DNA from: a virus
Taxonomy: Duplodnaviria > Caudoviricetes
IMG/VR virus record: IMGVR_UViG_3300024232_000005
Span: 1-43,767 of that record
Direction: 5' to 3' (one strand)
Length of the DNA: 43,767 nt
This document shows, piece by piece, positions 5,386 through 39,767 of this stretch. How positions within the stretch are numbered: the first letter of the stretch is position 1; each line of letters opens with the position of its first letter. The notes under the pieces are model-generated. The model was given only the letters and a program-made list of their open reading frames with translations. It ran no database searches and had not been told where the DNA came from. The position numbers and the translations under genes were made by a program.

Positions 5386-6107
5386 GCGAACAGAGGTCGG
5401 CGGCGGAAGTGGTTCTGGAAGTATTCGAGGCGATTGAGTCAGAGTTCAGCATTGAACCGCCAATCCCCAAGGAGATAACAAACTTACTCCATTCCAGGTT
5501 TACGGCCCTTGTTGAATCGGAACGATCCCGAGCGCGTGCGGGTTTCACCTACCCGCATATGTGCCGAGACGGGCATCCTGAAATCGGCCACAGCGACAAT
5601 AGCAGCGAGATGTGCCCATTGTGCCGAGCGCGTGCCGCAGACTATCCGTTGGATGCATCGTGCATGGATGTGGCCGACATCCTTGTTGACGAATACGCGC
5701 CCAACTGGTGCCCAGACCTTGCCAAGCCAGAGGCTCGGGAAAACCGCAACGAACTGAAGCGGCGGATAGGCAACGTGCTCTCATTCCAACGCGAGCAACT
5801 CAAAAAAGAGGCGCGTGCAGATGTGGCGGAACGCGATAAACTGCTGGCGGAAGTTCGCCGACAAGCCGACCAACTTGGCGAGAGATACCGAATCGCGGCG
5901 GCGGGACCGGGCCGTGAGTTCACGGCTGCGCTTGTGTGTGGAATCGGAGACAAGGTATCGGAGGTTGTGGCGGAACTGGTGGAGGCGCTGAAGAGCGTCA
6001 TTGACGCGCCGACAAGTGGATCGATTGACGTGATCACAGCGAGAAACGCTACGTTTCGGCGGGCGCGTGCCGCACTTGCCAAGCACTCCGAAGTGGAAAA
6101 GGTATGA
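5382..6107 (+). CDS. Hypothetical mosaic accessory protein
   Basis: GAGG RBS; CRDGH...CPLC module. Confidence 0.65.
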   Translation: MSEQRSAAEVVLEVFEAIESEFSIEPPIPKEITNLLHSRFTALVESERSRARAGFTYPHMCRDGHPEIGHSDNSSEMCPLCRARAADYPLDASCMDVADILVDEYAPNWCPDLAKPEARENRNELKRRIGNVLSFQREQLKKEARADVAERDKLLAEVRRQADQLGERYRIAAAGPGREFTAALVCGIGDKVSEVVAELVEALKSVIDAPTSGSIDVITARNATFRRARAALAKHSEVEKV

Positions 6108-6313
6108 GCAACACCAGTAAAATGCCATGGCCACCGCCTGAAGGATGGCCGGATTGCATGATTTGCAAGGATGAAGGAGTCTGGGGTGGTGGGGTACAGC
6201 CATTTCACTGGTGCGGATGCATCAGGGGCCGCGTGAGGGCGGCTACAGAGCCATCGTATGTGTCGGATGCAAACGCTGAATGGCAACGACTGAGGGATTT
6301 GGAGATTCGATGA
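6104..6313 (+). CDS. Stand-alone Zn domain paralogous to C-terminal half of 2263..2805
   Basis: CxxCxxxGxxGG...WCxC...EPxxVxxANxxxxRL shared with the replication protein. Confidence 0.65.
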   Translation: MSNTSKMPWPPPEGWPDCMICKDEGVWGGGVQPFHWCGCIRGRVRAATEPSYVSDANAEWQRLRDLEIR

Positions 6314-6594
6314 TGCTGCGCGGCAGGCCCGGAGATCTAGATCGTCATACACGCGAGGTGAGGCTTGCGGTCGGCAAGCCAAACGATATTGAACGCAGCG
6401 AGATTGTTACGGCCATTATGAAGCATCGCGACGCGCTTGGCGAACGATTTGAGATTCTGGAGGTAAAAGCCGGTGCCCTGCTTATCCGGCGAGGAGGGCA
6501 TTACGATCGAACCCATGAAGCATGGACGTGGCTTAAAGCAATCAGCTATTTAGGGAGCGAAGATGTTACACGGCTATTTGCCAAATCCTGCTGA
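6310..6594 (+). CDS. Hypothetical protein
   Basis: GGAG RBS; ATGA overlap. Confidence 0.55.
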   Translation: MMLRGRPGDLDRHTREVRLAVGKPNDIERSEIVTAIMKHRDALGERFEILEVKAGALLIRRGGHYDRTHEAWTWLKAISYLGSEDVTRLFAKSC

Positions 6595-6790
6595 CTGGCG
6601 GATTGCGGCAGACCGGGCGCGGCGGACCAAGTATCAGCGCGCGGAGGCCCAGAGGAAAGCTTCGCGAGATGATGCCGGCAAGCGCTGGGAACGCGATGAA
6701 GAGCTGCAAAAGGAGCGGGAAGCAAGCGCTAACGTAAAGATTCGATTGACGCGAGAGGACATTATGGGGCAGCATGGACAAGGATTCTGA
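6563..6790 (+). CDS. Hypothetical charged helical protein
   Basis: GGGAG RBS. Confidence 0.55.
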   Translation: MLHGYLPNPADWRIAADRARRTKYQRAEAQRKASRDDAGKRWERDEELQKEREASANVKIRLTREDIMGQHGQGF

Positions 6791-6793
6791 ATC

Positions 6794-7027
6794 ATGAGAA
6801 GAAGCCCTAATAAACGCCGCGACCAATCCACGCACAGGTTGGCTTTTATCGGAACTGAGCGACTGACAGGATTTGGTAGGCATATAGCTGATGTCGGGGC
6901 GATGACGCCGATGCAAATTGCCCTAGCTGATCCGCGTAATGATGTGCGGTTACCAGAACCGTGCAAGGTGCTTGTAAAGGATGGCGAGGTCACAGAAGAG
7001 GGCAGGCGTCGAGGAATCAAGCTATGA
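6794..7027 (+). CDS. Hypothetical protein
   Basis: AAGGA RBS; coupled to next gene. Confidence 0.55.
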   Translation: MRRSPNKRRDQSTHRLAFIGTERLTGFGRHIADVGAMTPMQIALADPRNDVRLPEPCKVLVKDGEVTEEGRRRGIKL

Positions 7028-7329
7028 CCCAAGGAATGCTATTCGAGCAGCAAGCACCAGCCAGGCGCACAGACCCGGAAACAGCGCACGAAGCAGCCGC
7101 CGAGAATCAGGACGTCAGGACATCCACAAGGCGAGAAGTGCTTATTTATCTACAATTTTGCCGCCAAACCGGTGCGACAGATTATGAGATTTGCGAGGCT
7201 TTAGGCATACTTAGGACGTCAGCCGGCAAGCGGCGCCACGAACTTGTAGCGCTCGGGCTTGTGGAAAACAGCGGGCAGCGGCGACAAACCGATACCGGCT
7301 CAACAGCGATCGTGTGGAGGGCTAAATGA
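7024..7329 (+). CDS. Winged-helix DNA-binding protein
   Basis: ARRTDPETAHEAA...GATDYEI...KRRHELVALGLV...AIVW pattern of phage wHTH proteins. Confidence 0.75.
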   Translation: MTQGMLFEQQAPARRTDPETAHEAAAENQDVRTSTRREVLIYLQFCRQTGATDYEICEALGILRTSAGKRRHELVALGLVENSGQRRQTDTGSTAIVWRAK

Positions 7330-7544
7330 AAGTGGACGAATTTTGTGATGAATTGGTGGTGGCCGCCTCAGACTTCATTGATGCTGCGCTGGACGATCAC
7401 GAGGGGCCTACCGTTTCCAAGGAATTCAGCCAATCGCGGGAGAAGCTGGTGTCATTGATAACTCAGTGGGTGCGGGGCGACGTAGCGCGAACGCTCAACA
7501 CCACGACTACAGACTGCGATGAGGGGAGCGCCAATCCAAAATGA
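7326..7544 (+). CDS. Hypothetical protein
   Basis: GGAGG RBS; coupled. Confidence 0.6.
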   Translation: MKVDEFCDELVVAASDFIDAALDDHEGPTVSKEFSQSREKLVSLITQWVRGDVARTLNTTTTDCDEGSANPK

Positions 7545-7831
7545 TATGGGAAAGAAAATGCGCAAGATGTGGGTTTGTGCGGAAGTTTAGCGGACCAGTG
7601 GCACTATTGCCTTGTCCTGGCTGCATAAAGCGATTCGATCCACCAACAGATGGTGAAGGGACAATGAAGCTCAGTGACGTAGTACGCGAATACCTTGAAA
7701 CTCGCGGCCCTGGCCAGCACCGTTTGATTGACGGATTCGCTTGGGTTTCAGAAAGGTGCGCAGAACTCGGGATTACGGCCACAGACGACGAAATCAAGCG
7801 CGAGTTTCGCGATGTCGCAGGCTACCCATGA
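7541..7831 (+). CDS. Hypothetical protein with Zn ribbon
   Basis: CARC...CPGC; may also have an internal start at MKLSD. Confidence 0.5.
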   Translation: MIWERKCARCGFVRKFSGPVALLPCPGCIKRFDPPTDGEGTMKLSDVVREYLETRGPGQHRLIDGFAWVSERCAELGITATDDEIKREFRDVAGYP

Positions 7832-7840
7832 CTATCACAC

Positions 7841-7869
7841 TTGCAGAATCAAAGCTTTAGGAGTACGAT
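7841..7869 (+). promoter_or_regulatory. Sigma70-like promoter upstream of packaging genes
   Basis: TTGCAG-N17-TACGAT. Confidence 0.55.
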
Positions 7870-7898
7870 TGATTCTCTAAAGTAGAAATTCCTTAGAT

Positions 7899-8357
7899 AT
7901 GGCGAAACGTGGACGGAAGCCTGGTACCCCCAAGACCGGCGGGCGCAAAGTCGGAAGCAAGAGCAAGCATGTCTTGGCACTGGAGCATCGCGATAACCCG
8001 CTAGTGCTGTTGTCGAGCAAACGAATTGAGCAAATCCTAACCAACACATTGCCTTGTAGTGTTTGCCGCGGAACCAAGGAAACGCCCTACGAGCTCCCAG
8101 CGGGAAGCCACGCAGCGGTGTGCAGATCCAGAATAGGCGCAGAATGCTCATGCCAGGGGATTGGGCAGCGGCCGTGTGCATCCTGCAAGGACGGATTCGA
8201 GCAGCTTTCGCCAGAGGTTATTGCAAAGGTGGCTATGGCGGTGCGCGAAGAGGCATACCCCAAGCTCAAGTCTATTGAGCACAAGGGAACTGTAAACGTT
8301 GATTTGATGGCCCAGAAGATCATCGCAGCCCGTAAAGCGCGAATGCTGCAGCAATGA
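7899..8357 (+). CDS. terS: Terminase small subunit with Cys-rich Zn-finger insert
   Basis: GRKPGTPKTGGRKVGS N-terminus, YPKLKSIEHKG C-terminus, position before terL. Confidence 0.7.
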   Translation: MAKRGRKPGTPKTGGRKVGSKSKHVLALEHRDNPLVLLSSKRIEQILTNTLPCSVCRGTKETPYELPAGSHAAVCRSRIGAECSCQGIGQRPCASCKDGFEQLSPEVIAKVAMAVREEAYPKLKSIEHKGTVNVDLMAQKIIAARKARMLQQ

Positions 8358-8452
8358 AAATCCCCCACCGATTCAAAAGATTGCTGCTCACGAGCATCAC
8401 CATTCTAGTGTTCCTTCTGGTGGCTTGGTTAGCAGGTAGGTATGTCCCGTGA
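8354..8452 (+). CDS. 32-aa single-TM peptide between terS and terL
   Basis: MKIPHRFKRLLLTSITILVFLLVAWLAGRYVP; ATGA and GTGA overlaps at both ends. Confidence 0.55.
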   Translation: MKIPHRFKRLLLTSITILVFLLVAWLAGRYVP

Positions 8453-9948
8453 CTGAAGCAGCGGAACAACTCGATTTGACGATCCAAGCGGGGTTGTATT
8501 GGGATAACCCGCTCGGATTCGTGTTGGATTGCTTTGAGTGGCCCGAAGGCGAGGGTCCTGATGAATGGCAGCGGCGGTTCCTAGAAGATTTTGGGAGTGC
8601 GATTAGATCGCGGTCTTTTGACCCCACTGTGCCCGAGCCGGTTGACCCGGTAAGAATGGCGGTCGCCAGTGGGCACGGAATCGGTAAATCCACGCTTATG
8701 TCGTTTGTTTTCTGGTTCATAATGTGCACCAGACCAAACGCTAAGGGCCGCGTCACGGCTAATACCTTCAGCCAGCTCGAGACGACAACATGGGCGGAGA
8801 TTCAGAAGTGGGGCAAGCGCTGCCGATTCAAGGATTGGTTCGAGGTTGGGGCCTCTAAGATCTATCACAAGGAAAACAAAGAGGGTTGGTTCGCTGTCCC
8901 GCTGACTTGCGCAGAGGAGAACAGCGAGGCGTTCGCTGGCCAGCATAATCGCGAGTCGACCAGCTTCTATTTGTTCGATGAATCGAGCTTGATACCCGAT
9001 ACGATATGGGAAGTTGCCGACAATGGACTTACCGACGGTGAGCCGATGTGGTTTGCCTTCGGGAACCCAACGCGCAATACGGGCAAGTTTTATGAGGCCT
9101 GTTTCGGTGATTGGCAGCATCGCTGGAATGCGCGATCAATCGACAGTCGAGACTGCAAGTTTCCGAATCACCAACTCCATGAAGAATGGATTGCAGATCA
9201 CGGGCTCGAATCGGATTTCGTTAAGACGAGGATTCGAGGATTGCCGCCGTCACAGGCTGAAGGGCAACTCATCAGCCGTGAGTTGGTGCAAGAGGCGCAG
9301 CATCGGCGTGTGGAAACACTGATGGATGAGCCATTGGTGGCCGGCGTAGACGTGCCTGACGGTGGGTCGGCATGGTTCGTGATTAGATTTCGCCGCGGGC
9401 TGGACGCTCGGCCTGGACCGCGCGTACCTTCGCCAATCAGAATTGCCGGTTCAAAGGTGGATCGGCCACAAATGATCGCTATCTGTTCGCAGGTGTTGAG
9501 CGAGCAGCATCCCGACAAGTTTGTGGATGCTATGTTCATCGATTCGGCCTTCGGTGCAGCCATTGCGGAGCGTCTTAAGTCTTTGAAATACGATAATGTT
9601 CACGAGATTAGCTTCGGTGGAAAGTCGCCAGATGAGCGGTTCGGGAATATGCGTGCGTTCATGTGGGGAAAGCAGATGAAAGATTGGCTCAGCAAGGGCG
9701 GAATCGATCCCGAGGATAAGAATTTGGTTAGGCAGTTGTCGGCGCCTGGGTTTCACCTGAAAGTTGGCGGCGATGGGGCGTTGATTGTCGAGAGCAAGGC
9801 TGACATGGCGAAGCGTGGTATCCCGAGTCCGGACGACGGGGACGCGTTGGCGCTTACTTTCGCGCGTGCAGTGGCCAAAAAGGAAAGAGCGCAGGTTGTG
9901 GAACATCCGCAAAGACACAGCCCAGACGCATGGATGCGTAGCATTTAG
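8449..9948 (+). CDS. terL: Terminase large subunit
   Basis: Walker A SGHGIGKS, Walker B FYLFDES, FGNPTR coupling motif, VAGVD and SPDDGDALALTF nuclease motifs. Confidence 0.95.
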   Translation: MTEAAEQLDLTIQAGLYWDNPLGFVLDCFEWPEGEGPDEWQRRFLEDFGSAIRSRSFDPTVPEPVDPVRMAVASGHGIGKSTLMSFVFWFIMCTRPNAKGRVTANTFSQLETTTWAEIQKWGKRCRFKDWFEVGASKIYHKENKEGWFAVPLTCAEENSEAFAGQHNRESTSFYLFDESSLIPDTIWEVADNGLTDGEPMWFAFGNPTRNTGKFYEACFGDWQHRWNARSIDSRDCKFPNHQLHEEWIADHGLESDFVKTRIRGLPPSQAEGQLISRELVQEAQHRRVETLMDEPLVAGVDVPDGGSAWFVIRFRRGLDARPGPRVPSPIRIAGSKVDRPQMIAICSQVLSEQHPDKFVDAMFIDSAFGAAIAERLKSLKYDNVHEISFGGKSPDERFGNMRAFMWGKQMKDWLSKGGIDPEDKNLVRQLSAPGFHLKVGGDGALIVESKADMAKRGIPSPDDGDALALTFARAVAKKERAQVVEHPQRHSPDAWMRSI

Positions 9949-9989
9949 CGAGAATTGGAGTATACTGCCTTGGTGACACATTCACGATC

Positions 9990-10253
9990 ATGATGACAAG
10001 AAAGACGCTCCTTCGCGTACTGCTGGCGATTAGACTCTTTGAGTCTAGCCGAGCATCCGACGCATATTACGCACTTCCACGAAAATTCAAACGCGGCTAT
10101 CTGTCGCCGATACACGTTTGGATATTTCGTCAGAACCTGCGCACGTTGTCGGAAGTTCTGCGGCCCTACCTGCGGCAGTTCATGCAGTCGGACGGTCGTC
10201 AGAAGATCGGCGATAAGATCCATATTCGCAAACCAGCGAGGTATGTAGCCTGA
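9990..10253 (+). CDS. Small protein resembling coat protein N-terminal region
   Basis: KIGDKIHIRKPAR versus coat KIGDTVYVRKPAR; stop overlaps groES start. Confidence 0.65.
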   Translation: MMTRKTLLRVLLAIRLFESSRASDAYYALPRKFKRGYLSPIHVWIFRQNLRTLSEVLRPYLRQFMQSDGRQKIGDKIHIRKPARYVA

Positions 10254-10753
10254 TGGGTAAACAAGATTCAAAATTCGACCACTTGCGGCCGCGCATCGAT
10301 GTAACCGAGTTCACGCCCTACTATGAGGATCGCGTCATGGTGCGCCGCATTGCGCATCCGGTAACGGACGGCTCGCTGTACCTACCTGAGAAGCGAAACA
10401 CGATTGGCGAAGGCGACTACGACCTTGTTGAGCTGCAATTGGGCGAGGTTGTAGCGCTTGGGCCTGGTTCCTCGGGGATCTGGAAGGATGGGGAGATCCG
10501 AGGGCATGGAGAGCACGCGCAGCAGCAGCCAGGGTATCCAAAAGCTTTCAAATCCGGCGGGCGCCTGCCGTTTCAGGTGAAGATTGGCGACAAAGTGCTG
10601 TATCATCGAGTTCACACGAACGAAGTGGTCCACGAAGGCGAGACGTACACGCTGCTTTTCGAAGAACAGAACATCCTGGCGGTTGTGGAGCAATCACAAA
10701 GCGAAGTATTTCGCGAGGTCAACGAAATGATGGATGCATGGGCTAAAACATGA
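10253..10753 (+). CDS. groES: GroES/Cpn10-like co-chaperonin
   Basis: PYYEDRVMVRR, LYLP, GEVVALGPG, VKIGDKVLY, EQNILAVVE motifs. Confidence 0.9.
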   Translation: MGKQDSKFDHLRPRIDVTEFTPYYEDRVMVRRIAHPVTDGSLYLPEKRNTIGEGDYDLVELQLGEVVALGPGSSGIWKDGEIRGHGEHAQQQPGYPKAFKSGGRLPFQVKIGDKVLYHRVHTNEVVHEGETYTLLFEEQNILAVVEQSQSEVFREVNEMMDAWAKT

Positions 10754-11423: not shown

Positions 11424-13538
11424 ATGTCAATAGAACGAGACGAAAGCTTTTTCGATAAGGCGCAGCGGCGGTTCAAGGCCGCTGTCGACGCTTGGAAACC
11501 CATCTATGATGAGATGGACATCGATCTCAAGTTCGCCACCGGGGACCAATGGGACGAAGCGGTAAAAACCAATCGCGAAACACAGCAAGGCCGTCCGACA
11601 CTCACCTTTGACGTTCTCCACACCAATATTCAGGTAGTCGCCAACAAGATCCGCCAAGACAAGCCGGCCATCAAGATAAGTCCGGCGGGCGGAGGCGCCA
11701 AGCAGGAAACCGCCAAGGTCTATGCGGGCATCATTCGCCACTGGAATTACCTGTCACAAGGCGATATCGCCCGCGACACGGCTTCGAAGTATCAGCTCTC
11801 GGGCGGAATCGGGTTCTACCGCGTCGCCACGAAGTACGTCAACCCAGATCCATCGCCAGATGACGCCGATGCCTTTGATCAGGACGGAACGACCGAATGG
11901 ATTCGTGACCCGAAGTCGGTTTACTTCGATCCTGATGTGGAGCAGCCGCAGTTTAAGGATGCCGGTTACTGCTTCATTATCAAGTGGATGTCCTGGGAGA
12001 AATACAAGGACAAATATGGCGACCGAAGCGATGCGAGCTGGGAAACATGGGACCAATCGGCACCGCTTCTGCGACCGTGGGCCAATGAAAAGGAAATAGC
12101 AGTAGCAGAGTATTGGCATAAAGAGACCACTAAAACTGAGATCAATGTTAATGGGAAGAAACGCATCAAAACCACCACCGTTGTGAAGCAGGACTTCATG
12201 AACGGAATCGAGGTGCTTTCGTCGACGGAATGGCTGACGGACGACATCCCCATCATTCCGGTGCTCGGTGAGGAAACCATTGTAGAAGGTAAGTTGAAAA
12301 TTGCAAGTCTGATCCGCTACGTGCGTGACGCGGCGAAACTGCGAAACGGCTACAAGTCGGCGATTGCGGAAAACATCGGACTCACGAACCGAGTGCCGTA
12401 CACCGGGCCGCGCGGCATGTTCAAGGGGCCAGGCTGGCGCGACGCTCACCTGACAAACCCTGCGTATCTCGAATGGGATCCGGTTTACGATACAAACGGG
12501 CAGCTGATCCCAGCCAAGCCAGAGCGAAACCCCATTGAGCCGGCTGTTCAGGCGCTCACCGAATCGGCGGCGGTTGAATCTGACGACATCAAGTCTGGAA
12601 TGGGTATTTTCGATTCAAGCATTGGGGCGGCCAAGGCCGAATACAGCGGGGTTTCCGTTGAGCGGCGCACCCAGCAGGCTGATATCACGAATTTCCATTT
12701 CAGCGACAACTTGACCCGTGCAATGTGGGTTGAGGGGAACATCCTGCTCAAGCTCATCCCGAAACTGATCGACACGCCACGGGCGATGAAGATCATGGAT
12801 GAGGACGGTACGATTTCGGAAGTTGCGATCACAATGGCTCTGAATGACGGTGAGCCGCCGATGGTCGATGGAATCGATCCCAAGGATCATCACAGGGTCG
12901 ACGTGGGGCGATATTCCTGTACGGTGAGCACCGGTCCGACCTGGGACACGCAGCGTAAGGAAGAATATGAGACGTGGATGGAGTTTCTCGCGAAAGCTCC
13001 TGAACTGGCTCCTGCGTTTCTGCCGGTGGTTCTGAAGTGGTCGGATACGCCAGGCGCCGACAAACTGGCCGAAATCGCTGGCGCACTCGCTCCGCCAGCG
13101 GTTCAGGCGATTCTGAAGGGCGAACAGGCCCCGGATCCGCAAGCTCAGGCGCAATTGGCGGCGGCATCTCAGCAGATGCAGGAACTTCAGGCTGAGAATA
13201 TGAAGCTTAAGTTCGATGCGGCGGCTAAAACGCAAGAACTGACGATGAAGCATTCGACTCAGATTGAAAGCAACGTCGTCGATCTGCTAAAGGCTGAAAT
13301 CTCTTCCAAAAACAAGGAAACAATCGAGATGGTTCAGCAGCAGTTCGCCGCCTTTGGGCAAATGCTTGAAATGTGGCAGGGGCACGCCGAAATGGCTCAA
13401 CAGCACGAGCACGACATGGCGAAAGGCCAACAGCAAATCGACGCTGCGCAGCAGGCGCAAGCCTCAGATCAGGTACACTCGACTATGCAACAGCAGGCAG
13501 CCGCGGAACAACAGCAATCAGAAGGAGCAGGACAATGA
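11424..13538 (+). CDS. P22-like portal protein
   Basis: GDQWD...RPTLT, IPIIPVLGEE, VGRYSCTVSTGP motifs; Q-rich C-terminal barrel; synteny. Confidence 0.93.
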   Translation: MSIERDESFFDKAQRRFKAAVDAWKPIYDEMDIDLKFATGDQWDEAVKTNRETQQGRPTLTFDVLHTNIQVVANKIRQDKPAIKISPAGGGAKQETAKVYAGIIRHWNYLSQGDIARDTASKYQLSGGIGFYRVATKYVNPDPSPDDADAFDQDGTTEWIRDPKSVYFDPDVEQPQFKDAGYCFIIKWMSWEKYKDKYGDRSDASWETWDQSAPLLRPWANEKEIAVAEYWHKETTKTEINVNGKKRIKTTTVVKQDFMNGIEVLSSTEWLTDDIPIIPVLGEETIVEGKLKIASLIRYVRDAAKLRNGYKSAIAENIGLTNRVPYTGPRGMFKGPGWRDAHLTNPAYLEWDPVYDTNGQLIPAKPERNPIEPAVQALTESAAVESDDIKSGMGIFDSSIGAAKAEYSGVSVERRTQQADITNFHFSDNLTRAMWVEGNILLKLIPKLIDTPRAMKIMDEDGTISEVAITMALNDGEPPMVDGIDPKDHHRVDVGRYSCTVSTGPTWDTQRKEEYETWMEFLAKAPELAPAFLPVVLKWSDTPGADKLAEIAGALAPPAVQAILKGEQAPDPQAQAQLAAASQQMQELQAENMKLKFDAAAKTQELTMKHSTQIESNVVDLLKAEISSKNKETIEMVQQQFAAFGQMLEMWQGHAEMAQQHEHDMAKGQQQIDAAQQAQASDQVHSTMQQQAAAEQQQSEGAGQ

Positions 13539-14089: not shown

Positions 14090-15076
14090 ATGGCTGAAGG
14101 GACCGTTGAGAGCACCAAACCGCAAGACGCCAAGACATTCGCGGACTTTCAAGCCTCTCCCGAGGTACAACAGATTTTAGGGGTATCGCCGACCAGGGGT
14201 AAACCCGAACCGGCGTCACCGGCATCGCCAGCCGTTGAAAAAAAGGCGGATGACCCACCTGAACCTGAAAAGGTTGAAGCCACTGCTACCCCAGGTGAAG
14301 CAGACGACAAAGCAAATCAGGTTAAGAGAGATCGAAGCGCTGAAGGGCGCGTCAGAGAGGCTTTAGCTAAATCCAAAGCTGCCGAAGAGCGGGCCGAGCG
14401 GCTCGAAAAAGAGCTTGAAGAATTGCGTAAGGGGACTCGCAAACCCGAGGAAACCGTTAAAACAGAGGTAGCCAAGGAACCAGCGAAAGATGGTCCGCCG
14501 AAATTGGCGGATTTCACGGGCGATTCAAAGTACAAGACGTACGATGAAGCGCTCGAGGCCTACCATGACGCGCGTGATGAGTTTCGCGATCGCAAGGCCA
14601 GCGAAAAGGCAGCGGCTGAGAAGGAAGCGGCGGAAGCCAAAACCAGAAAAGCCGAAATCGATAAACGCTTGGAACCTGCGAAAGCGAAGCATTCGGATTG
14701 GCAAGAGAAGCTTGACGAGACAGCAGCCAAGTATCCAGAGTCTGCAAATATCGGCATGGAAGCCGGATTAAAAGACTGCGATGATATGGGCGAAATGATG
14801 TACCACTTCGCGACTCATCACGATGAGTTTGAGAGGGTGGTATCAATGGAACCCAAAGCTGCGTATCGGGAAGTTCTTCGAACCGAAATCCGATTGGGCG
14901 CGAATCAATCTTCAGAACCTGATAAACAAGAGCCAGTTGTTTCGAAAGCTCCAGCACCGGCGGAACGGATCACCGGCGGAGCCCGCGGGAGCGAAATTAC
15001 TCCGGACAAAGCGCGAAGCCAGCGTGAGTTCGAAAGTAACTCGGAAGTCCAGCGGATTTTGAAACAAGCACGTTAA
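14090..15076 (+). CDS. Scaffolding protein
   Basis: Charged coiled coil, VSKAPAP C-terminal motif, directly before coat. Confidence 0.85.
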   Translation: MAEGTVESTKPQDAKTFADFQASPEVQQILGVSPTRGKPEPASPASPAVEKKADDPPEPEKVEATATPGEADDKANQVKRDRSAEGRVREALAKSKAAEERAERLEKELEELRKGTRKPEETVKTEVAKEPAKDGPPKLADFTGDSKYKTYDEALEAYHDARDEFRDRKASEKAAAEKEAAEAKTRKAEIDKRLEPAKAKHSDWQEKLDETAAKYPESANIGMEAGLKDCDDMGEMMYHFATHHDEFERVVSMEPKAAYREVLRTEIRLGANQSSEPDKQEPVVSKAPAPAERITGGARGSEITPDKARSQREFESNSEVQRILKQAR

Positions 15077-15176: not shown

Positions 15177-16433
15177 ATGGCGAACGCGCTGCTTACCAGC
15201 CAGGTCATCACTCGTATGCCCTTGGCGGTTCTGAAGAACAACACTGTCGCAATTCCGCAGATGACGCGGGATTACGATAAAGAATTCGGCAAAAAGGGCG
15301 ACAAGATCGGCGATACCGTCTATGTCCGCAAGCCCGCACGGGCAATCGGGCGCGACGGCTCCGGTTATGCGCCTGAACCAATGATCGACACTGAGGTACC
15401 GATTAGCATCACTCAACAGTCGGGTGTCGACTTCCAGTTCAGCACTGCTGAAAAGAAGTTGAGCCTCGACGAGATGTCGAAGCGGTACCTGATTCCTTAC
15501 GGAATTGCGATCGCGAACAAGTTGGATCTGCGGGCACTGCAGATGGCCCAGCAGAACACATTCAACTTCGTGGGAACTCCCGGCGTAACGCCCGGGCTGA
15601 GTGGCTCGAATGCGTTCCTGACATGGATGCAGGCGGGTGCTTTCCTGGACATCATGGGCTTCCCGCTGAAGGGCGGCAGCCGATGCGCGTTCATGAACCC
15701 GGACGGTCGAGTGGGATGGGTAAGCTACAATTCTGCGCTGTTTAACAATCAGACCGAACTCGGTGAGCAGTGGAAAACCGGGCAGGTCATGGGCAATCCG
15801 CTGGGCTACAAGTGGTGGATTGATCAGAACATGCCGACCCAGACCATCGGGACACTGGGTGGAACTCCTACCGCAAACGGCGCCAACCAGACCGGCACTT
15901 CGATCCTGACGACCGGCTGGACCGCCAGCATCACCAATGTTTTGAATGTTGGGGACAAAATCAGCTTCGCGGGCGTGTATTCGGTTAACCCGCAATCGCG
16001 GCTCTCAACCGGAAAACTGGCGAATTTCACCATTCAGGCCGCGGCAAGCTCCGATGGAAGCGGAAACGCGACCTTGACGATCTACCCGGCCATCGTTCCT
16101 AGCGGCCAATTCCAGAATGTGACGAATTCGCCTTCAGTGAATGCGCTCATTAACGTATTTGGAGCGGCGGCGGCCGGCCAAGGCGCTCTTTCGGCTCTGC
16201 CAACCGTTCAGAACATGCTATGGGATAAGACGGCGTTCGCGTTCGTCAGCTTCCCCGGTGACGTTCCGGATGGTGTGGACATGGGCGACGAAGAGCGAGA
16301 CGAAGATACCGGCGTTTCCATGCGTTTCGTGCGCCAGTTCATCGGCGGGACGGATCAGTGGATCAATCGATTCGATGTGTATTACGGCTATGGGCCGCTG
16401 TATGCCGAAGGGAGCGTTGTGATCTGCGGATAA
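15177..16433 (+). CDS. Major capsid protein, P22 gp5 coat family
   Basis: MANALLT, KIGDTVYVRKP, insertion domain GDKISFAGVYSVNP, RFDVYYG C-terminus. Confidence 0.93.
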   Translation: MANALLTSQVITRMPLAVLKNNTVAIPQMTRDYDKEFGKKGDKIGDTVYVRKPARAIGRDGSGYAPEPMIDTEVPISITQQSGVDFQFSTAEKKLSLDEMSKRYLIPYGIAIANKLDLRALQMAQQNTFNFVGTPGVTPGLSGSNAFLTWMQAGAFLDIMGFPLKGGSRCAFMNPDGRVGWVSYNSALFNNQTELGEQWKTGQVMGNPLGYKWWIDQNMPTQTIGTLGGTPTANGANQTGTSILTTGWTASITNVLNVGDKISFAGVYSVNPQSRLSTGKLANFTIQAAASSDGSGNATLTIYPAIVPSGQFQNVTNSPSVNALINVFGAAAAGQGALSALPTVQNMLWDKTAFAFVSFPGDVPDGVDMGDEERDEDTGVSMRFVRQFIGGTDQWINRFDVYYGYGPLYAEGSVVICG

Positions 16434-18047: not shown

Positions 18048-18764
18048 GTGGCGAGCTTCAATCTAACGCAGGTTGCCAATAAAGCGGCGCAGAAGTTGAT
18101 GGTTATCGACTCCAGCGGATCTTTGTCCACTCAACAGCTCAATGATGCGAAGGACATCGCGAACAACCTGCTAGAAAATTGGTCGGTGCAGCGGATCTAT
18201 GCGATCTCTGCACCAATCTCCGTCTTTAATCTGGTTTCAGGCCAGCAAAAATATTCAATCGGAACCGGGCTGAACTTCAATATCGCCCGTCCAGCAGCGA
18301 TTGAAGCAGCCAGCTTTCAGTTGAGCTTCGGAGGAGGCTCTCAGTCGTCCGAATTGAAGGTTTTGACCGCGGCGGAGTGGTCCTCGCTTCCGGATCGCAA
18401 CAGTTCGAGCACGTTGCCAAAGTTTCTCTATTACGATCGTGGATTCCCCACCGGATTCGTGTATCTGTCGCCCGTTCCGTTGGGTGGAACGCTTGAAGTA
18501 ACCAGTTGGGGCGCTCTCACGCAGTTCGCCGATCTGACTACGCCGATTACTCTCCAACCCGGCTATGCTCGGCTGCTTATCGCTGGGCTCGCTATCGAAA
18601 TGGCGCCGGATTACGAGGCTACGCCTGGCGCGGCGCTCGCCCAGGATTTTGCCGATGCCGCGGCGAACATTCGGCAACTCAATGCCGAGCTCATGGGGCC
18701 AGAGCCTCCAATTGGTCTGGTGGCGCCGAACCCCAATCAACCCGTTGCCGCCGGTGGAGGTTAG
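18048..18764 (+). CDS. Head-tail adaptor (P22 gp4-like), copy 1
   Basis: NNLLENWS, RPAAIEAA, PKFLYYDR, PGYARLLIAGLAIEMAPDY. Confidence 0.75.
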   Translation: MASFNLTQVANKAAQKLMVIDSSGSLSTQQLNDAKDIANNLLENWSVQRIYAISAPISVFNLVSGQQKYSIGTGLNFNIARPAAIEAASFQLSFGGGSQSSELKVLTAAEWSSLPDRNSSSTLPKFLYYDRGFPTGFVYLSPVPLGGTLEVTSWGALTQFADLTTPITLQPGYARLLIAGLAIEMAPDYEATPGAALAQDFADAAANIRQLNAELMGPEPPIGLVAPNPNQPVAAGGG

Positions 18765-18767
18765 CTT

Positions 18768-19598
18768 GTGTCGCGAACCTATACCGGCACTCAAATCATC
18801 TACCGCGCGGCGCGGGCGCTCGGAAACCTGCGCTCAGGCCAACCTGTGCCGACAGAGCAACTCCCTGACTTCATGGATTCCCTCAATGATATGGTGGATG
18901 GCTGGCAAGTCGATCAACGCAAGATTTTTTGCGTTGCGGCCAATCTCTACCAGCTCACGGCAGGTCAGCAGTTCTATCTGATCGGGCCCAACGCGCCTGC
19001 GTCGACAGTCGCAAACGGCAATACCTACATTGGAATTCAGGCGCCGCGTCCGAACGCGATTGAAGAAGCCAACATTCTAATTCAGAGCACGAATCCGGTG
19101 GTGCGCTATCAGATGGCGATTGTGAATGCGGAGCAGTGGAGCACCATCGCTGTGCAGACGCTGCCTTTCGCAATCCCAATGGTGCTTTGGAACGATAACA
19201 ATTTCCCGTCGACTGGGGCGACGGCAGGCTGCGCGGCGCTTAGCCTGTGGCCCGGCCCGCTTGGAAGCTATCCGCTTGAGCTGTTCACGTGGCAACAGAT
19301 TCAACAATTCGCCGATGCGACGACTTCTTATGCTTTCCCGCCGGGATACGCCGAAGCTATCATCTTTTCACTCGCTGAACATGCTGCATCGCTGTTCCGA
19401 TTCTACTTTAAAGTGCCCAATGCAGTGTTTGCCGAGCAATTCGAGCTGGTTAAGCAGCAAGCACGGCGCGCGCGGCAAAACATTGACGAATCGAACGCAC
19501 GTCAGGAGTTCATGGCGATCGATCCAGCATTTCAGTCTGTCGACTCGCGCTATGGGGCCTGGTCTTATTTGACCGGGGGATGGGGGCGTACACTCTGA
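18768..19598 (+). CDS. Head-tail adaptor (P22 gp4-like), copy 2
   Basis: LNDMVDGWQ, RPNAIEEA, FPPGYAEAIIFSLA. Confidence 0.75.
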   Translation: MSRTYTGTQIIYRAARALGNLRSGQPVPTEQLPDFMDSLNDMVDGWQVDQRKIFCVAANLYQLTAGQQFYLIGPNAPASTVANGNTYIGIQAPRPNAIEEANILIQSTNPVVRYQMAIVNAEQWSTIAVQTLPFAIPMVLWNDNNFPSTGATAGCAALSLWPGPLGSYPLELFTWQQIQQFADATTSYAFPPGYAEAIIFSLAEHAASLFRFYFKVPNAVFAEQFELVKQQARRARQNIDESNARQEFMAIDPAFQSVDSRYGAWSYLTGGWGRTL

Positions 19599-34777: not shown

Positions 34778-34783
34778 ACGAAT

Positions 34784-34850
34784 ACATTACACCAATTCAT
34801 CATTTTGTGCAATCTATTTCCTTGACATCTTTCCCGACCTCCTTCATACT
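34784..34850. promoter_or_regulatory. Divergent sigma70-like promoter pair
   Basis: Plus: TTGACA(34822)-N17-CATACT; minus: TTGCAC(34812)-N17-TAATGT. Confidence 0.7.
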
Positions 34851-34906
34851 GACAATCGAGGCCACTCAATGCAACTCAACATGAACGAGATCGCGGAGGT
34901 GCAGGG

Positions 34907-35305: not shown

Positions 35306-35307
35306 TT

Positions 35308-35535: not shown

Positions 35536-36097
35536 CACCTTCGCTGACCAGTATAATCGGGCGTACCTGCAATCTCTGACGCCTGATGTTTTCTACGGCC
35601 TGTGGGCCACTTCCGGTTCTTTCGGAATCCCTATGACGGGTACTCCGATGGACGCCGCGCAACGCATTCAGGCGGCTTACGCGCTTGCTGGTAAGGGAGC
35701 AAAAGTCACGCTGGCCGACATGACCGCGCGTGCTCCATACGATGTGATGCGCGATTACATCACGGACGGCTACAAGGTGTTCGGATACCTGCTTGAGGGA
35801 ACCGCTGACTGGGCGATGTCGCCTCCGGGGCAATCGCTGCCAGGGCTGCCCGCTTACGATCCGACTGGGCACACGGGAATCGTGGCGTTTACTCCGCTGC
35901 CAGCTCCGTACAGCGGTCCAGTAGTTGAGCCTACCAAGTATGTCGGCCTGCGGGCGAACAATGACAACGGTGGCGAGTACAATGGCATCAACGGCGCAGA
36001 AACGAAGTTCGTCGTCGGCGAAGCAACCGTGCAGGACGGAATCCAGTACGTATTCATCGGCGGCAATCCCTGCTGGCAGCTGGTTGGAAGGGCTTAG
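35510..36097 (+). CDS. Hypothetical protein
   Basis: AAGGAG RBS; 195 aa. Confidence 0.75.
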   Translation: MYPVQIPGNTFADQYNRAYLQSLTPDVFYGLWATSGSFGIPMTGTPMDAAQRIQAAYALAGKGAKVTLADMTARAPYDVMRDYITDGYKVFGYLLEGTADWAMSPPGQSLPGLPAYDPTGHTGIVAFTPLPAPYSGPVVEPTKYVGLRANNDNGGEYNGINGAETKFVVGEATVQDGIQYVFIGGNPCWQLVGRA

Positions 36098-36101
36098 GTG
36101 G

Positions 36102-36488
36102 GTGACCAAGAGAATACATCCAGATAATGCTTATCTTCCTGGAATTTGTGCAGGGTGTGGTAGCTCCTTCCGTGCATTGAAGTATGAGGTGGCTAGAGGT
36201 AGGGCGAGATATTGTTCTCGCCTTTGCCTTGTAAAACTACACCCAACAATAGGTACCCACGGGGCATCTGGTGAGGGAAAACCTCCGGTATCTATTAGGA
36301 GAAAATGTAGAGACGCTTTGAATTCAGCAATCAGACGCGGTAGGATTAATCGACCGTCGGCGTGTTCTGTTTGTGGATCTGAAAATGATGTTCAAGCCCA
36401 CCACGAAGATTATGAAAGACCGCTCGATGTTGTGTGGTTATGCCTGAAATGCCATAGAGCTACTCATTGGCAACTCGGCAGGGCGTAG
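36102..36488 (+). CDS. HNH-type Zn-finger endonuclease
   Basis: CAGCG...YCSRLC and CSVCG...AHHEDY..PLDVVWLCLKCH; more AT-rich than flanks. Confidence 0.75.
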   Translation: MTKRIHPDNAYLPGICAGCGSSFRALKYEVARGRARYCSRLCLVKLHPTIGTHGASGEGKPPVSIRRKCRDALNSAIRRGRINRPSACSVCGSENDVQAHHEDYERPLDVVWLCLKCHRATHWQLGRA

Positions 36489-36491
36489 GGA

Positions 36492-36713
36492 CGGCGCGAA
36501 AGCGCTGGAAGGTTAGATCTTTTCAAAGGACGTAGTACTAGGAGAGGGATGCGCCATAGAGTTAAAAATGCGCCCGATCTGTACCGGGGAACCATGGTCT
36601 ACCCCGAACGCGAACGAAAGGTAATACGCGTGAAGTCAATCAGGCTTGCCGTGTCTAGTCTTTCACACATCTGGTTATGCGGGTGTGGCGGGTAACCGCA
36701 CTGGACACGGCAA
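36492..36713 (+). ncRNA. Candidate structured RNA (may overlap a 48-aa ORF 36549..36695)
   Basis: 14-bp stem 36646-59/36700-13 enclosing two hairpins; additional GNRA hairpins. Confidence 0.4.
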
Positions 36714-36739
36714 ATTCAATTTCAATATACGGAGGAACG

Positions 36740-36940
36740 ATGAGCAAATGGACTCCATCCCGCGCCCGCCGACTATGGCTCAGCCTTCCGGAGGGTGAGC
36801 GCGTACGCTTGGGATCGCTGATTGCGAATCCTCCTGTTGAACTGGAACCGGCGAAGCTGATCGCGGAGGATCGTTGCCCGATTCAGGCGTTGACGGAATC
36901 GGAAAATAAAGCTTTGCTGGCGTCGCTGACTCTGGGATAA
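36740..36940 (+). CDS. Hypothetical protein
   Basis: GGAGG RBS. Confidence 0.65.
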   Translation: MSKWTPSRARRLWLSLPEGERVRLGSLIANPPVELEPAKLIAEDRCPIQALTESENKALLASLTLG

Positions 36941-36947
36941 TAGACCG

Positions 36948-37118
36948 ATGAAGTCGCTACTGATAGTCGCCGCGCTCTCGCTCACCGGATGCATGTTCCA
37001 CAACGTGCACACCAACACCGCGCTCGACCGTACGGTGTGCCCCGATCCGCCTCCGGTTCATCCCGACGCGATCATTGGTTCGACGCCGTGCAAAGTTTTA
37101 CCGGAAGCACAAAAGTAA
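36948..37118 (+). CDS. Small Pro-rich lipoprotein (o-spanin-like; not in ORF track)
   Basis: MKSLLIVAALSLTG|C lipobox; CPDPPP. Confidence 0.65.
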   Translation: MKSLLIVAALSLTGCMFHNVHTNTALDRTVCPDPPPVHPDAIIGSTPCKVLPEAQK

Positions 37119-37435
37119 TGTGGCATTGGAAACGCAAGACGCAGTTAGATCGAATCGAAGGAAAGGTAAACAAAATGGATCTTGACATTACGAAACTTCA
37201 GGCATTCGCCGACGCGAACAAAGCGAAGGTGGAGGCCCTACTGGCATCGCAGGCGAAAGCGGTAGCGCTTCTGCAGGCGCTCTCGGCTGCAGCCGGGCAG
37301 GGTGGCTCTGTCACCCAGGCGCAGATTGACGCGGTAGCTGCCGAGCTGAGCGCGACCTCCGATGAGGCGAGCGCCGGTGAAGCTGCGCTGGATGCTGAAG
37401 TGGCGAAGGATACGCCGCCCGCGCCTGCGGGATAA
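37118..37435 (+). CDS. Ala-rich coiled-coil protein
   Basis: TAATG coupling; QLDRIEGKVNKM heptads. Confidence 0.65.
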   Translation: MWHWKRKTQLDRIEGKVNKMDLDITKLQAFADANKAKVEALLASQAKAVALLQALSAAAGQGGSVTQAQIDAVAAELSATSDEASAGEAALDAEVAKDTPPAPAG

Positions 37436-37535
37436 CGACTTCCGAGAGCCGCTGAGACTATCGGCTTTCAAGAACCCCAGGGCGTCGGGGCGGGACGGCA
37501 CCATATGCAACGTACTTGTGAGATTGATCCTGGTT

Positions 37536-37575
37536 CCGCGCCGTATCCTCGGGGGAGGGCGGCGCGGTTTGCTTT
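37536..37575 (+). terminator. Putative intrinsic terminator
   Basis: CCGCGCCG...CGGCGCGG stem followed by TTTGCTTT. Confidence 0.45.
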
Positions 37576-37875
37576 ATGATGAACAGACGCGGATTCTTCG
37601 GATTGCTTGGCGGGGCTGTCGCGGCGCTGACGCTGGACCCCGAAAAGGCGCTATGGGTTCCGGGGAAGAAGCTGATTTCGATTCCCCTTCATGGCGGAGG
37701 CAGACTACAGCAGTTCTACGTCACTGGAATCGAATATTCTTTGGGTGACTATGCTGACATTTACCTGCGGCCAGGGGATGACGGAAACATACTATCTATA
37801 AGATCAGGTTGGGCAACAGAGATCCTGAAGCCAGGTGATAGGTTCACGATCGCCGGAATGTATCAAAAAAACTGA
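37576..37875 (+). CDS. Twin-arginine-leader protein with coat insertion-domain-like segment
   Basis: NRRGFF leader; LQQFYVT and GW...LKPGDRFTIAGMY similar to coat. Confidence 0.65.
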   Translation: MMNRRGFFGLLGGAVAALTLDPEKALWVPGKKLISIPLHGGGRLQQFYVTGIEYSLGDYADIYLRPGDDGNILSIRSGWATEILKPGDRFTIAGMYQKN

Positions 37876-37902
37876 GCATCCATTTGTGCTAGACTCTCGG
37901 CA

Positions 37903-38400
37903 ATGAAGCAGATCGAACTAACGAAGGGCTACTGCGCCCTGGTTGACGATGATGATTTTGATTTGCTCAGTCAGCATAATTGGTGCGCGGCCGTATATCG
38001 TTACAAGGATCGCTGCATTGTAAACGCTCAGGCCGACATCAAGAGAAACGGCAAGAAATTCAGTGTCCAGATGCATCGTTTCTTGATGGGCATACCAGAC
38101 TGCAAGACTGATCACAGGGACGGTAACGGACTAAACAATCAGCGAGAAAACCTGCGCCTTGCTACACATCAGCAGAACATCCACAATAGACGCAAACACC
38201 AGACCTCGACATCGGTATCCATGTTCAAAGGGGTCACGAGGAAAACTCCCGGATCTAGGTGGAAAGCCAGAATTATGCATAACGGGGTTTCTCATGACAT
38301 CGGGTTGTTCACTGAAGAATCTGATGCTGCTCTTGCATACAATCTCAAGGCCGAAGAGCTGTTCGGTGAATTCGCCTGCTTCAATCGAGCTGCTGCATGA
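37903..38400 (+). CDS. HNH-AP2 homing endonuclease
   Basis: IELTKGYCALVDDDD, DHRDGNGLNNQRENLR, FKGV...WKARI...AALAYN..AEELFGEFA. Confidence 0.9.
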   Translation: MKQIELTKGYCALVDDDDFDLLSQHNWCAAVYRYKDRCIVNAQADIKRNGKKFSVQMHRFLMGIPDCKTDHRDGNGLNNQRENLRLATHQQNIHNRRKHQTSTSVSMFKGVTRKTPGSRWKARIMHNGVSHDIGLFTEESDAALAYNLKAEELFGEFACFNRAAA

Positions 38401-38660
38401 AGGGATTCATCAGCGATCCCGTGTTGATCATTCTGCTGTTGGCAACTTTCACTTTCGTCGGACTAACTATTTTCATTTCGTTGCACAACCCTAACGATGG
38501 GCAGACGTTCCAGCTTCTGGGGAATCTTTCTACCGGGTTCGCTGGAGCTGTCCTGGGGCGTGTTAAACCACAGGCGGCTCACGAAACAGCGCCAGGCACA
38601 ACTGGAATCACCAAAACTGAAACATCGACTGTTCAAGTTACCCCGCCCGTCGACAAGTGA
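38397..38660 (+). CDS. Two-TM holin-like protein
   Basis: Two hydrophobic segments, polar tail. Confidence 0.55.
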   Translation: MKGFISDPVLIILLLATFTFVGLTIFISLHNPNDGQTFQLLGNLSTGFAGAVLGRVKPQAAHETAPGTTGITKTETSTVQVTPPVDK

Positions 38661-38896
38661 CCGATGCTGTCAAAGCTGCGCTGATTGCAGGCGCTGCCTC
38701 CGTCCTAACCTGCTTCCTGACGTGGTGGCTAACCCGTATTTCCAACCGCAAACAGGCCGTCAAGCTGATTCGCTCGGGGATGAACGGGGAACTCGATAAG
38801 CTGCTCGCTATCGCTCGGGAGGGCGGCCGGCAGGACGGATTCCGGGAAGGCGTGGCGCACACTTTGAAGCGCCTGGGATTGCCACCAACGGTATAA
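38657..38896 (+). CDS. Single-TM holin-like protein
   Basis: N-terminal TM followed by MNGELDKL; GTGA coupling. Confidence 0.55.
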   Translation: MTDAVKAALIAGAASVLTCFLTWWLTRISNRKQAVKLIRSGMNGELDKLLAIAREGGRQDGFREGVAHTLKRLGLPPTV

Positions 38897-38943
38897 TCAC
38901 AAATGTCTCGCCTTTCCGTCTAAATTCGTGATAAACTTTGCCC

Positions 38944-39072
38944 ATGCCAGACGAAAAAGAGAAACACCCACACCCCGACCCGCATCCTCCTGTTAGCTAT
39001 GATGAGACTGATCCACCCCCACCGCCTCCTCCAACTCAAGGCGGAGGACCGGGCGGCGATGGCAAAGGCTGA
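38944..39072 (+). CDS. 42-aa Pro/Gly-rich peptide (not in ORF track)
   Basis: MPDEKEKHPHPDPHPPVSYDETDPPPPPPPTQGGGPGGDGKG; TG-A-TAAACT 6 nt upstream of ATG. Confidence 0.55.
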   Translation: MPDEKEKHPHPDPHPPVSYDETDPPPPPPPTQGGGPGGDGKG

Positions 39073-39082
39073 ACAGTCGGCG

Positions 39083-39352
39083 ATGCAGACGCCCGATCAT
39101 CAGGATTGTCAGAACACGTCGCAGGTAGTCGCCGGCTTGTCGGCTATCTCTGGAGGGCTTGTTACAGCTTTCCTGACCTGGTTGAGGATGAAGTTTAGGC
39201 CGCCGGCCGATCCGCGGATACAGCGCATGGAGCGGGAGCTAGAGCAGTTGCGTACGGAGCGCAGCGAGGCTCATATTTTGGAAAACTTCAAGCGCTGGTT
39301 TCGTGATGAGGGACTGAAGGAGCTGCGTGCTGAGTTCGGGAGACGGCGGTAA
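39083..39352 (+). CDS. Single-TM coiled-coil protein
   Basis: VVAGLSAISGGLVTAFLTWL then charged helix. Confidence 0.55.
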   Translation: MQTPDHQDCQNTSQVVAGLSAISGGLVTAFLTWLRMKFRPPADPRIQRMERELEQLRTERSEAHILENFKRWFRDEGLKELRAEFGRRR

Positions 39353-39767
39353 ACTCCACCTGCGTAGAGGCCATGTAGTTGTAGATCATCTGGGCTTCTC
39401 GATTTCTGCGCACTAGCAGCACTTTGGCGTCTTCAAGTTCTTGAGCTTGCGAAACCGATAAAGTTGCACCAGGCAGACGCCTATTGTAGTGCGGATCATT
39501 TGAGATCGCAGCAGCTATAAGTTCGGGCAGTCTATTGATTGTTAGAGTTGGACGATGCCTAATCAGCCTCTCTGCCTTAACCTGTCCGTCCCATTGATCT
39601 TCCCCTTCATAAAATCTCAAGGCTTCTGCGCGTTCCTTATCCGAGATCGGGTTGCGATCACTGTCGATGATCGATCTAACGGTTACGAAAGATCCAACCT
39701 GATCACCCATCCATTGAATCGGCTGTTCTAGCGATGGTATTTGTATTTGCTCCTGTGGTATTTCCAT
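39288..39767 (-). CDS. Miniature, internally deleted portal-like protein
   Basis: LRFYEGEDQWD..VK..R...RPTLTINRL and LVRRNREAQMIYNYMAS match two separate portal segments; AAGGAG RBS. Confidence 0.75.
   Translation of the reverse strand: MEIPQEQIQIPSLEQPIQWMGDQVGSFVTVRSIIDSDRNPISDKERAEALRFYEGEDQWDGQVKAERLIRHRPTLTINRLPELIAAAISNDPHYNRRLPGATLSVSQAQELEDAKVLLVRRNREAQMIYNYMASTQVEFTAVSRTQHAAPSVPHHETSA

Follow-up and report, generated by a model that had tools for sequence, protein, structure and literature searches.

The stretch of DNA considered here (the window, 43,767 nucleotides) is a complete 43.8-kb virus record, IMGVR_UViG_3300024232_000005, with direct terminal repeats at its ends, and the runs that contain this phage are soil metagenomes. 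It encodes four small open reading frames (ORFs) which, according to an earlier note on the same DNA, each reproduce part of a core protein of the phage. All four are intact: 6104-6313 (69 aa), 9990-10253 (87 aa) and 37576-37875 (99 aa) on the plus strand, and 39288-39767 (159 aa) on the minus strand. These ORFs and the full-length genes with which they were compared are as follows.

2263..2805, plus strand: full-length counterpart of the ORF at 6104, a hypothetical protein after a helix-turn-helix gene.
6104..6313, plus strand: standalone CxxC...CxC zinc-finger ORF without a leader, homologous to the C-terminal part of 2263-2805.
9990..10253, plus strand: mini-gene that combines an R-K variant of the leader with coat residues 18-57 (home-made coat profile).
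11424..13538, plus strand: intact P22-like portal (PF16510, E 3e-128).
15177..16433, plus strand: intact P22-like coat with an insertion domain (PF11651, E 1.7e-30).
37576..37686, plus strand: constant twin-arginine-type leader with N-R-R-G-F-F, a hydrophobic stretch and a conserved DPE..LWVPGKKLISIP motif (alignment of 27 proteins).
37687..37875, plus strand: cargo of permuted coat pieces, namely a piece like coat 272-283, a shortened spine-helix-like piece and coat 239-263 (insertion domain).
39288..39767, minus strand: leaderless mini-portal, portal 29-69 joined to 296-321 (PF16510, hhalign).

When each ORF was aligned with its named full-length gene, the pairwise score was reached by none of 5000 shuffles for 9990, by 1 of 5000 for 6104, by 3 of 5000 for 39288 and by 8 of 5000 for 37576. 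In a scan of 878 frames against 24 larger proteins of the genome, 9990 alone (E 8e-5) stood clearly above chance; 6104 (7e-4), 39288 (9.5e-4) and 37576 (0.011) were borderline, chance frames reaching about 1e-3. Since these genome-wide values were mostly borderline, profiles were needed to settle homology. Single-sequence searches were too blunt, as BLAST comparison of small ORFs with the large proteins encoded in the same genome missed all four window ORFs; over 19 records it returned 9 matches among 798 small ORFs, compared with 1.7 for shuffled sequences. Sequence profiles confirmed 39288, 9990 and 37576 as real mosaics of virion-protein pieces. An assembly artefact was ruled out, because contigs of runs X2 and X4 cover 9990 without differences and intact homologs of similar length were found for all four ORFs.

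The mini-portal matches PF16510 at E 1.7e-10 (40.5 bits, against a curated cut-off of 26.1), and its homologs P0002 and P0003 reach 32.2 and 39.0 bits. The internal deletion described earlier is real, as the protein is made of two pieces, portal 29-69 and 296-321 (hhalign probability 94.9 and 92.3); a third piece at the N-terminus, suspected by eye, was not supported in the profile alignment. Two standalone homologs of 157 and 167 residues (61-62% identity) share this build, so that the family measures 157-167 residues and not the 600-750 of full-length portals, and only portal 29-69 and 296-321 align. A search of viral contigs returned three full portals and no standalone relative. The structure model is all helical (pLDDT 64) and had no Foldseek match in PDB at E<=0.001; VIA gave only generic helical matches (best Z 5.1, unrelated), and the profile matched none of the PDB sequences. 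A predicted complex of residues 15-148 with residues 1-600 of the phage's portal scored 0.01, which is not evidence either way. A convergent ORF, 38999-39352, shares 65 nt (39288-39352) with the 3' end of the mini-portal gene.

Local coat homology of the other two mini-genes was detected only with a profile of 31 related coats, which 9990 matches at residues 18-57 (p 1e-8) and the cargo of 37576 at residues 239-263 (p 9e-6). Neither has a Pfam or PHROG coat match, and the homolog P0006 reaches 12.2 bits against a PF11651 cut-off of 24. In the full-length coat, residues 241-331 match PDB chain 6mpo_A (132 aa), which we take to be the Sf6 I-domain. The permutation ascribed to 37576 is likewise genuine: its homolog P0005 carries coat pieces in the order 270-283, 92-130, 245-261. 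The homologs of 37576 share their first 36 residues and diverge afterwards, and leaders 81-92% identical to that of the window carry different pieces (P0009, P0010, P0011, P0013, P0015). For 9990 there is one homolog, P0032, 79% identical. Directly after 37576 lies an HNH endonuclease gene (37903-38400), with TAGACT 7 nt before its start, which is replaced in the X4 contig.

The ORF at 6104 differs from the rest, and the proposal that the four ORFs form one system was not borne out: 6104 has no leader, and those relatives whose sequence spans its site have it there. Searched against 17,490 ORFs, a profile of its family picks up 2263-2805 at E 7.8e-4. That counterpart, whose earlier assignment to replication is at best putative, has no Pfam match above cut-off, G39P_N (G39P-like helicase loaders; score 0.89, 11% of members) being a weak lead only, and a scan of viral contigs with ORF 2263 found nothing. 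Homologs of 6104 in L021, L029 and G004 conserve the front end and vary in the remainder. To judge from sequence, 6104 is probably a separate zinc-finger paralog and not part of the leader system.

The hydrophobic leaders that the earlier note singled out proved more consequential, as the leader is of twin-arginine (Tat) type and defines a family of thousands. A profile of 27 leader proteins matches 3,195 clusters (50% identity) at E<=1e-3 and 1,304 at E<=1e-10; among the best 150 of the 3,195, all but one have 50-189 residues. The family has no model in the Pfam, PHROG and NCBIfam libraries searched, and a 37-residue leader query with the low-complexity filter on had no match in 50,697 deposited phage records. 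The general Tat motif is Z-R-R-X-phi-phi (PMC13673990). In the window the motif is N-R-R-G-F-F in 37576 and an R-K variant in 9990, and 39288 and 6104 have none. RRx[FLW] is kept in 238 of 244 leaders, partly by construction, the leaders having been picked by the leader profile. The hydrophobic stretch that follows has a median of 15 residues (12-15) and a mean Kyte-Doolittle value of 1.8. AxA occurs in the last 9 leader residues in 191 of 238, within an alanine-rich stretch and without a control comparison. An Atlas search placed unnamed clusters first and Tat-signal clusters at 0.83-0.86, as leads only.

Cargos, that is, the proteins with the leader cut off, were scored against profiles of full-length head proteins from the fetched loci. 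In a first set, from which 3 cargos of fewer than 20 residues were left out, 26 of 113 matched at p<1e-4 (21 coat, 4 adaptor, 1 portal), compared with 0 of 2260 shuffled and 0 of 113 reversed sequences. A second set, biased to insertion-domain pieces because the query profile contained some, gave 39 of 130, with 0 of 1300 after shuffling. In the pooled cargos there were 65 matches in 240 at p<1e-4 and 78 at p<1e-3, 11 of them with at least two pieces, and the matched classes are coat, adaptor, portal and nozzle. When 83 cargos and 131 whole proteins were compared with PHROG, few matched; the additions were another capsid family, phrog_212 (E 1.3e-4), matches to adaptor families at E 3.5e-10 and 4.9e-8, and a single excisionase-like match (E 9e-4). 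The non-virion profiles were shallow, and an exclusive virion origin of the cargos cannot be claimed. Motifs resembling the terminase catalytic site occur in 3 of 240 cargos; the patterns were written after the cargos had been viewed, which makes their shuffle control flattering, and little weight is given to them.

It could be argued that such genes have no function and represent recombination debris together with chance similarity selected post hoc. The borderline in-genome values of three of the four ORFs would fit, as would the fact that an ordinary zinc-finger paralog is the likeliest reading of 6104. On the other side stand the cargo matches with their empty controls, the intact homologs, and the substitution pattern of 90 leader DNAs, in which synonymous differences are near saturation (0.54-0.75 per site) and non-synonymous ones amount to 0.07-0.42, although the finding of leaders by protein similarity lowers the latter. 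This explanation is very hard to credit overall, and for the leader family and the mini-portal it is already largely refuted. The leader is also not a mobile DNA repeat, a candidate ruled out because all synonymous codons are used and synonymous divergence is about 0.7; the conserved leader motif itself uses the full codon range.

The copies are mostly old, as judged from codon sharing at baseline. Over eight mini-parent pairs, codons at identical residues were shared in 71 of 145 cases, which is the level between coats of different phages (42-51%). Recent duplication was thereby ruled out and the homologs keep the design, so that the earlier judgement that these are not fresh duplication debris stands; single pairs share more (9 of 13 for 9990, 11 of 14 for one G010 pair). 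Residues of the parent consensus are invariant more often than others in the mini-portal family (25/36 vs 46/123, p 6e-4) and in the 37576 family (10/21 vs 11/49, p 0.036). As for parentage, the claim that the pieces copy the phage's own proteins is compatible with the coat pieces (among 33 coats its own ranks first for 9990 and third for 37576) and fails for the mini-portal, for which its own portal ranks 17th of 30. Over the family, 15 coat cargos could be ranked in this way, and 9 of them place the own coat among the five best of 33; for another 4 cargos the locus contains no own coat. The copies thus lean to their own lineage and are not always self.

Because conservation is much stronger in the leader than in any of the cargos, the leader might itself be the working part, occupying the Tat machinery or signal peptidase or perturbing the membrane, with the cargo being mostly decaying filler derived from neighbouring structural genes. 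Several cargos are indeed only 14-31 residues long (two of these are cut by a contig end), many continue into unrelated tails, and one cargo pair is neutral (dN/dS 0.98). However, many distinct clusters at 50% identity retain coat motifs (the 39 of 130 above), with codons no closer to the donor than baseline, and there are conserved minis without any leader (the 39288 family, L063:9350 and L011:16927). Tandem arrays, moreover, carry different pieces: three leader genes in a row in L025 hold coat 3-57, 246-300 and 333-401, and three twin-arginine genes in L075 hold three coat pieces. An active leader with an idle cargo is accordingly judged quite unlikely.

Several other members of the family merit description. 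At L008:9579-10004, in tandem with a standard leader gene, a twin-arginine gene has a different leader and a cargo that by eye resembles tail-nozzle propeller strands. A recurring cargo family with no match to the profiles used is found at L014:9986-10255, L016:2116-2379 and L113:132-422; the L014/L016 pair is under purifying selection (dN/dS 0.11), and the sequence is possibly the N-terminus of another capsid family. Four leader copies at L111:1763-3612, on both strands and with cargos of 17-58 residues, some without a clear start, may be decaying copies. Leader matches occur in 11 of 26 records, exactly the 11 picked for having one; the 15 picked by coat or portal similarity gave no leader match at E<=0.01, and two of them, G017 and G018, carry divergent coat minis.

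The genomic setting of the mini-genes is a P22-like head module, whose remaining features are given here.

8449-9948: terminase.
9961..9966, plus strand: TATACT, a -10-like hexamer directly before the slot occupied by 9990 (comparison of window, L064 and L029).
10253..10753, plus strand: GroES-like co-chaperonin (PF00166, E 9e-11), its start overlapping the stop of the 9990 mini-gene.
14090-15076: scaffold.
18048-19598: two adaptor-like genes.
19580-21073: head-closure (nozzle-type) gene.

Close relatives lack each of the mini-genes at 39288, 9990 and 37576 or have other sequence in its place. Three states are found for the slot between terminase and groES among phages 87-93% identical across the flanking genes: it holds 9990 in the window, a full leader with a C-terminal coat piece in L003, L021 and L064 (about 89-91% identical to the window in the flanks), and nothing in L029. 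Replaced and empty states were also seen in contigs of runs X4 and X6. Elsewhere, X4 and X5 contigs have 91 other letters in place of 37576-37879, and 213 other letters in place of 39133-39790, which includes the mini-portal. TATACT lies 6-7 nt before a start codon in the other two slot states and is a candidate leaderless promoter.

Further variation was noted around this slot. In an X4 contig a 9990 homolog (at window 10158-10251) runs into other DNA that starts like the ejection-protein gene found after the leader gene in L002; a mini-gene of the 9990 type may thus occupy a second slot as well. In L064 the head operon has an extra insert after groES (2599-2820), a twin-arginine gene with an unassigned cargo, and after the portal a leaderless ORF (5949-6221) whose end weakly resembles the coat spine helix, its own coat ranking 23rd of 33. 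The GroES-like protein of the window has an internal insertion and a C-terminus 19 residues longer than in L064 and L029, where groES ends at the next insertion point. The two adaptor-like genes are tandem paralogs, both of phrog_12985 (mutual E 3e-21); at L169:10387-10812 (G016), a 141-residue internally deleted adaptor paralog lies beside a full adaptor, where the window has two full-length paralogs.

Across the family, 16 of the 22 leader genes with a head gene in their locus lie within 2 kb of it, 12 in the same and 10 in the opposite orientation to the nearest one, and in 33 of 86 leader genes the stop overlaps the next start. Of 87 leader genes, 17 carry TANNNT 5-8 nt upstream of the start, compared with 8 of 227 head genes and a mean of 3.9 in shuffles. 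These -10-like hexamers, with the antisense placement, make own early promoters plausible for part of the family. For 37576 and 39288 no flanking promoter- or terminator-like site was seen, the counts in 36000-43767 being at chance level.

The closeness to head genes, the stop-start overlaps, the coupling of 9990 to groES and the own-coat bias would suit helpers or regulators of the phage's own head assembly, acting in timing, chaperone loading or membrane anchoring of assembly sites. Yet close relatives that share the head genes lack all three minis (the coat proteins of L028 and L029 do not differ at all, at 100% identity), and orientation is nearly even. A helper role is therefore regarded as very unlikely.

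A further alternative is that the pieces are assembly poisons, joining the growing heads of co-infecting or superinfecting P22-like phages, with the leader dragging subunits to the membrane. Coat cargos concentrate in hot spots at 2-60, 87-125, 236-310 and 333-406, and we take the N-arm, the P-domain and the D-loop to lie within these ranges. In P22 the N-arm, the P-domain and the I-domain D-loop make or stabilise capsid contacts (10.1101/626804). The mini-portal is closer to portals of other phages than to its own and lies on the strand opposite to the late genes, 10 of 22 leader genes are antisense to the nearest head gene, and interference with assembly by mobile elements is known (Tai, PMC11364771). 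Against a poison, the own-coat bias and the position of 9990 inside the head operon, next to groES, are such that self-poisoning would be expected. Profiles PF00589 and PF00239 found no tyrosine or serine recombinase in the complete window genome; one of the four other carriers tested, G012, does have an integrase, which would favour a poison, and the remaining three have none. The terminase motifs copied in cargos are presumably catalytic-site-like and not subunit interfaces, and are thus not obvious targets for a poison. On balance this alternative is unlikely; if it were correct, the family would be a large new class of phage-against-phage inhibitors.

Decoy and poison, the two roles proposed in the earlier note, remain the leading candidates. 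The best explanation, adopted tentatively and at a little under even chances, is that the mini-genes are bait which binds host sensors of virion proteins and is taken to the membrane or out of the cell. On this view the optional and swappable genes supply short, divergent versions of conserved stretches of coat and portal; the copied piece would bind a host sensor without activating it; in tagged members the twin-arginine leader would hold the bait-sensor pair at the membrane or export it via Tat; and any one phage would possess a limited and shifting repertoire of baits, suited to whichever sensors its hosts have. What is established is that the pieces are copies, that the leader is constant, that the genes are swapped among close relatives, and that the leader and some cargos are conserved at the protein level. 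Expression of the genes, recognition of the leader by Tat, binding to a sensor and a benefit to the phage are inferred. Tat co-export of a partner protein is reportedly known.

Bait is favoured because the cargo classes overlap the reported sensor targets, turnover is fast and no lysogeny genes were seen. Also in its favour are the retention of parent-consensus residues in the mini-portal and 37576 families, the different pieces behind leaders 81-92% identical to that of the window, and the agreement of the leader with the Tat motif. Targets reported for bacterial sensors are the major capsid protein (MCP), portal, portal adaptor, tail nozzle and terminase (PMC13581612). In the same source Avs1-3 are assigned to terminase, so the earlier statement that Avs2 senses portal was mistaken; Avs4 and Avs11 sense portal, Avs7, Avs8 and Avs10 the MCP, Avs12 the adaptor and Avs13 the nozzle, and Lit and CapRel read short MCP motifs. 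The three-state slot among close phages is the kind of turnover expected in conflict, and the lack of a recombinase in a complete genome weakens a role in the defence of lysogens here.

A number of observations weigh against bait. No profile match at p<1e-3 was obtained for 162 of 240 cargos, and no position within coat 130-230 is represented in more than 1 of 67 segments, even though pieces simulated from that region were detected about as often as others. Only one of the four window ORFs has the full leader, which in 37576 reaches 11.3 bits against a PF10518 cut-off of 22.7 (best of 31 proteins, 18.6) and in P0013 12.2 bits in NCBIfam against a TIGR01409 cut-off of 16.7. Selection on cargos is uneven, with dN/dS of 0.11, 0.18, 0.46, 0.62 and 0.98 in five alignable pairs, and 9990 shows no consensus preference against its one homolog (12/15 vs 57/72). 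Avs sensors wrap whole folds of monomers, and Avs7, Avs8 and Avs10 bind the A-domain interface of the MCP (PMC13581612); as the cargos skip the A-domain, the bait would have to be aimed at sensors that read motifs, for example CapRel and Lit, or at sensors not yet known. A sensor-binding fragment could itself trigger the sensor, and the copied coat parts include known subunit-contact elements, equally suited to a poison.

A broader form of the bait explanation is that phages in soil maintain a reshuffled stock of virion-protein baits, all attached to a shared export handle, with thousands of genes, fixed slots and removal through Tat of receptors for capsid, portal, adaptor, nozzle and terminase. 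This extension seems doubtful at present; if true, the cargo catalogue would map the virion surfaces that are watched by uncultured bacteria.

The carrier itself does not appear to be a remnant: a defective phage was ruled out, as portal, scaffold, coat, adaptors and nozzle are all intact. Its host may be an acidobacterium, since a contig 85-94% identical to the window (L021) was binned in a metagenome-assembled genome of Pyrinomonadaceae (Acidobacteriota), although a binning error is possible. Back-to-back sigma-70-like promoters (10 and 9 of 12 matches) at 41473-41718 sit between a minus-strand ribbon-helix-helix gene and plus-strand early genes, and this arrangement is a possible control switch in an integrase-free phage. 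An ERF-family single-strand annealing gene (PF04404, E 5.5e-16) occupies 43137-43767 plus 1-234, extending into the terminal repeat.

Bacteria sense most core virion proteins (PMC13581612), whose folds phages cannot easily change, and a modular bait on an export tag would, if true, be a new class of counter-defence. The mini-genes, of 250-500 bp, are directly testable, and their cargos name candidate trigger surfaces. In the literature listings covered, from which most subscription papers were absent, no description of a leader-plus-fragment family was found; the design is real and apparently not previously described.

Among known systems, phage morons are optional genes inserted among conserved late genes, and some bring a -10 element with them. 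The mini-genes are similarly optional between conserved genes, with a GC content of 49-52% compared with 55-57% in three core genes; unlike morons, they combine a shared leader with shuffled virion-derived cargo, and no terminator-like site lies right after 37576 or 39288. The capsid-interference proteins of satellites are also encoded by small mobile genes that act at virion assembly. The same is true of the Tai inhibitors (PMC11364771), which, however, block tail assembly, come from prophages or satellites and may need a counter-gene, whereas here head-protein pieces occur in a genome without an integrase. Anti-defence sponges and mimics (Tad and Acb sponges, the ICP1 Gp145 antitoxin mimic; PMC13728456) are likewise small accessory proteins of phages, with a proposed role in sequestering or mimicking some part of the immune system; the known ones bind nucleotide signals or imitate host antitoxins or DNA, and none met in the literature searched copies the phage's own trigger proteins or is export-tagged. 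The virion protein classes targeted by Avs/STAND, CapRel and Lit (PMC13581612) are those that appear as cargo, although as short pieces instead of the whole folds of Avs/STAND targets, and the coat pieces avoid the A-domain region bound by Avs7, Avs8 and Avs10. Finally, the leader resembles the signal peptides of the Tat pathway, and Tat substrates that are anchored by their N-terminus (PF10518 and TIGR01409; classes I and III of PMC13673990), in its Z-R-R-X-phi-phi motif and Gly/Ala-rich hydrophobic stretch; it differs from them in scoring below the curated cut-offs, in the DPE motif that follows, in being phage-encoded, with export only putative, and in carrying pieces of virion proteins that assemble in the cytoplasm.

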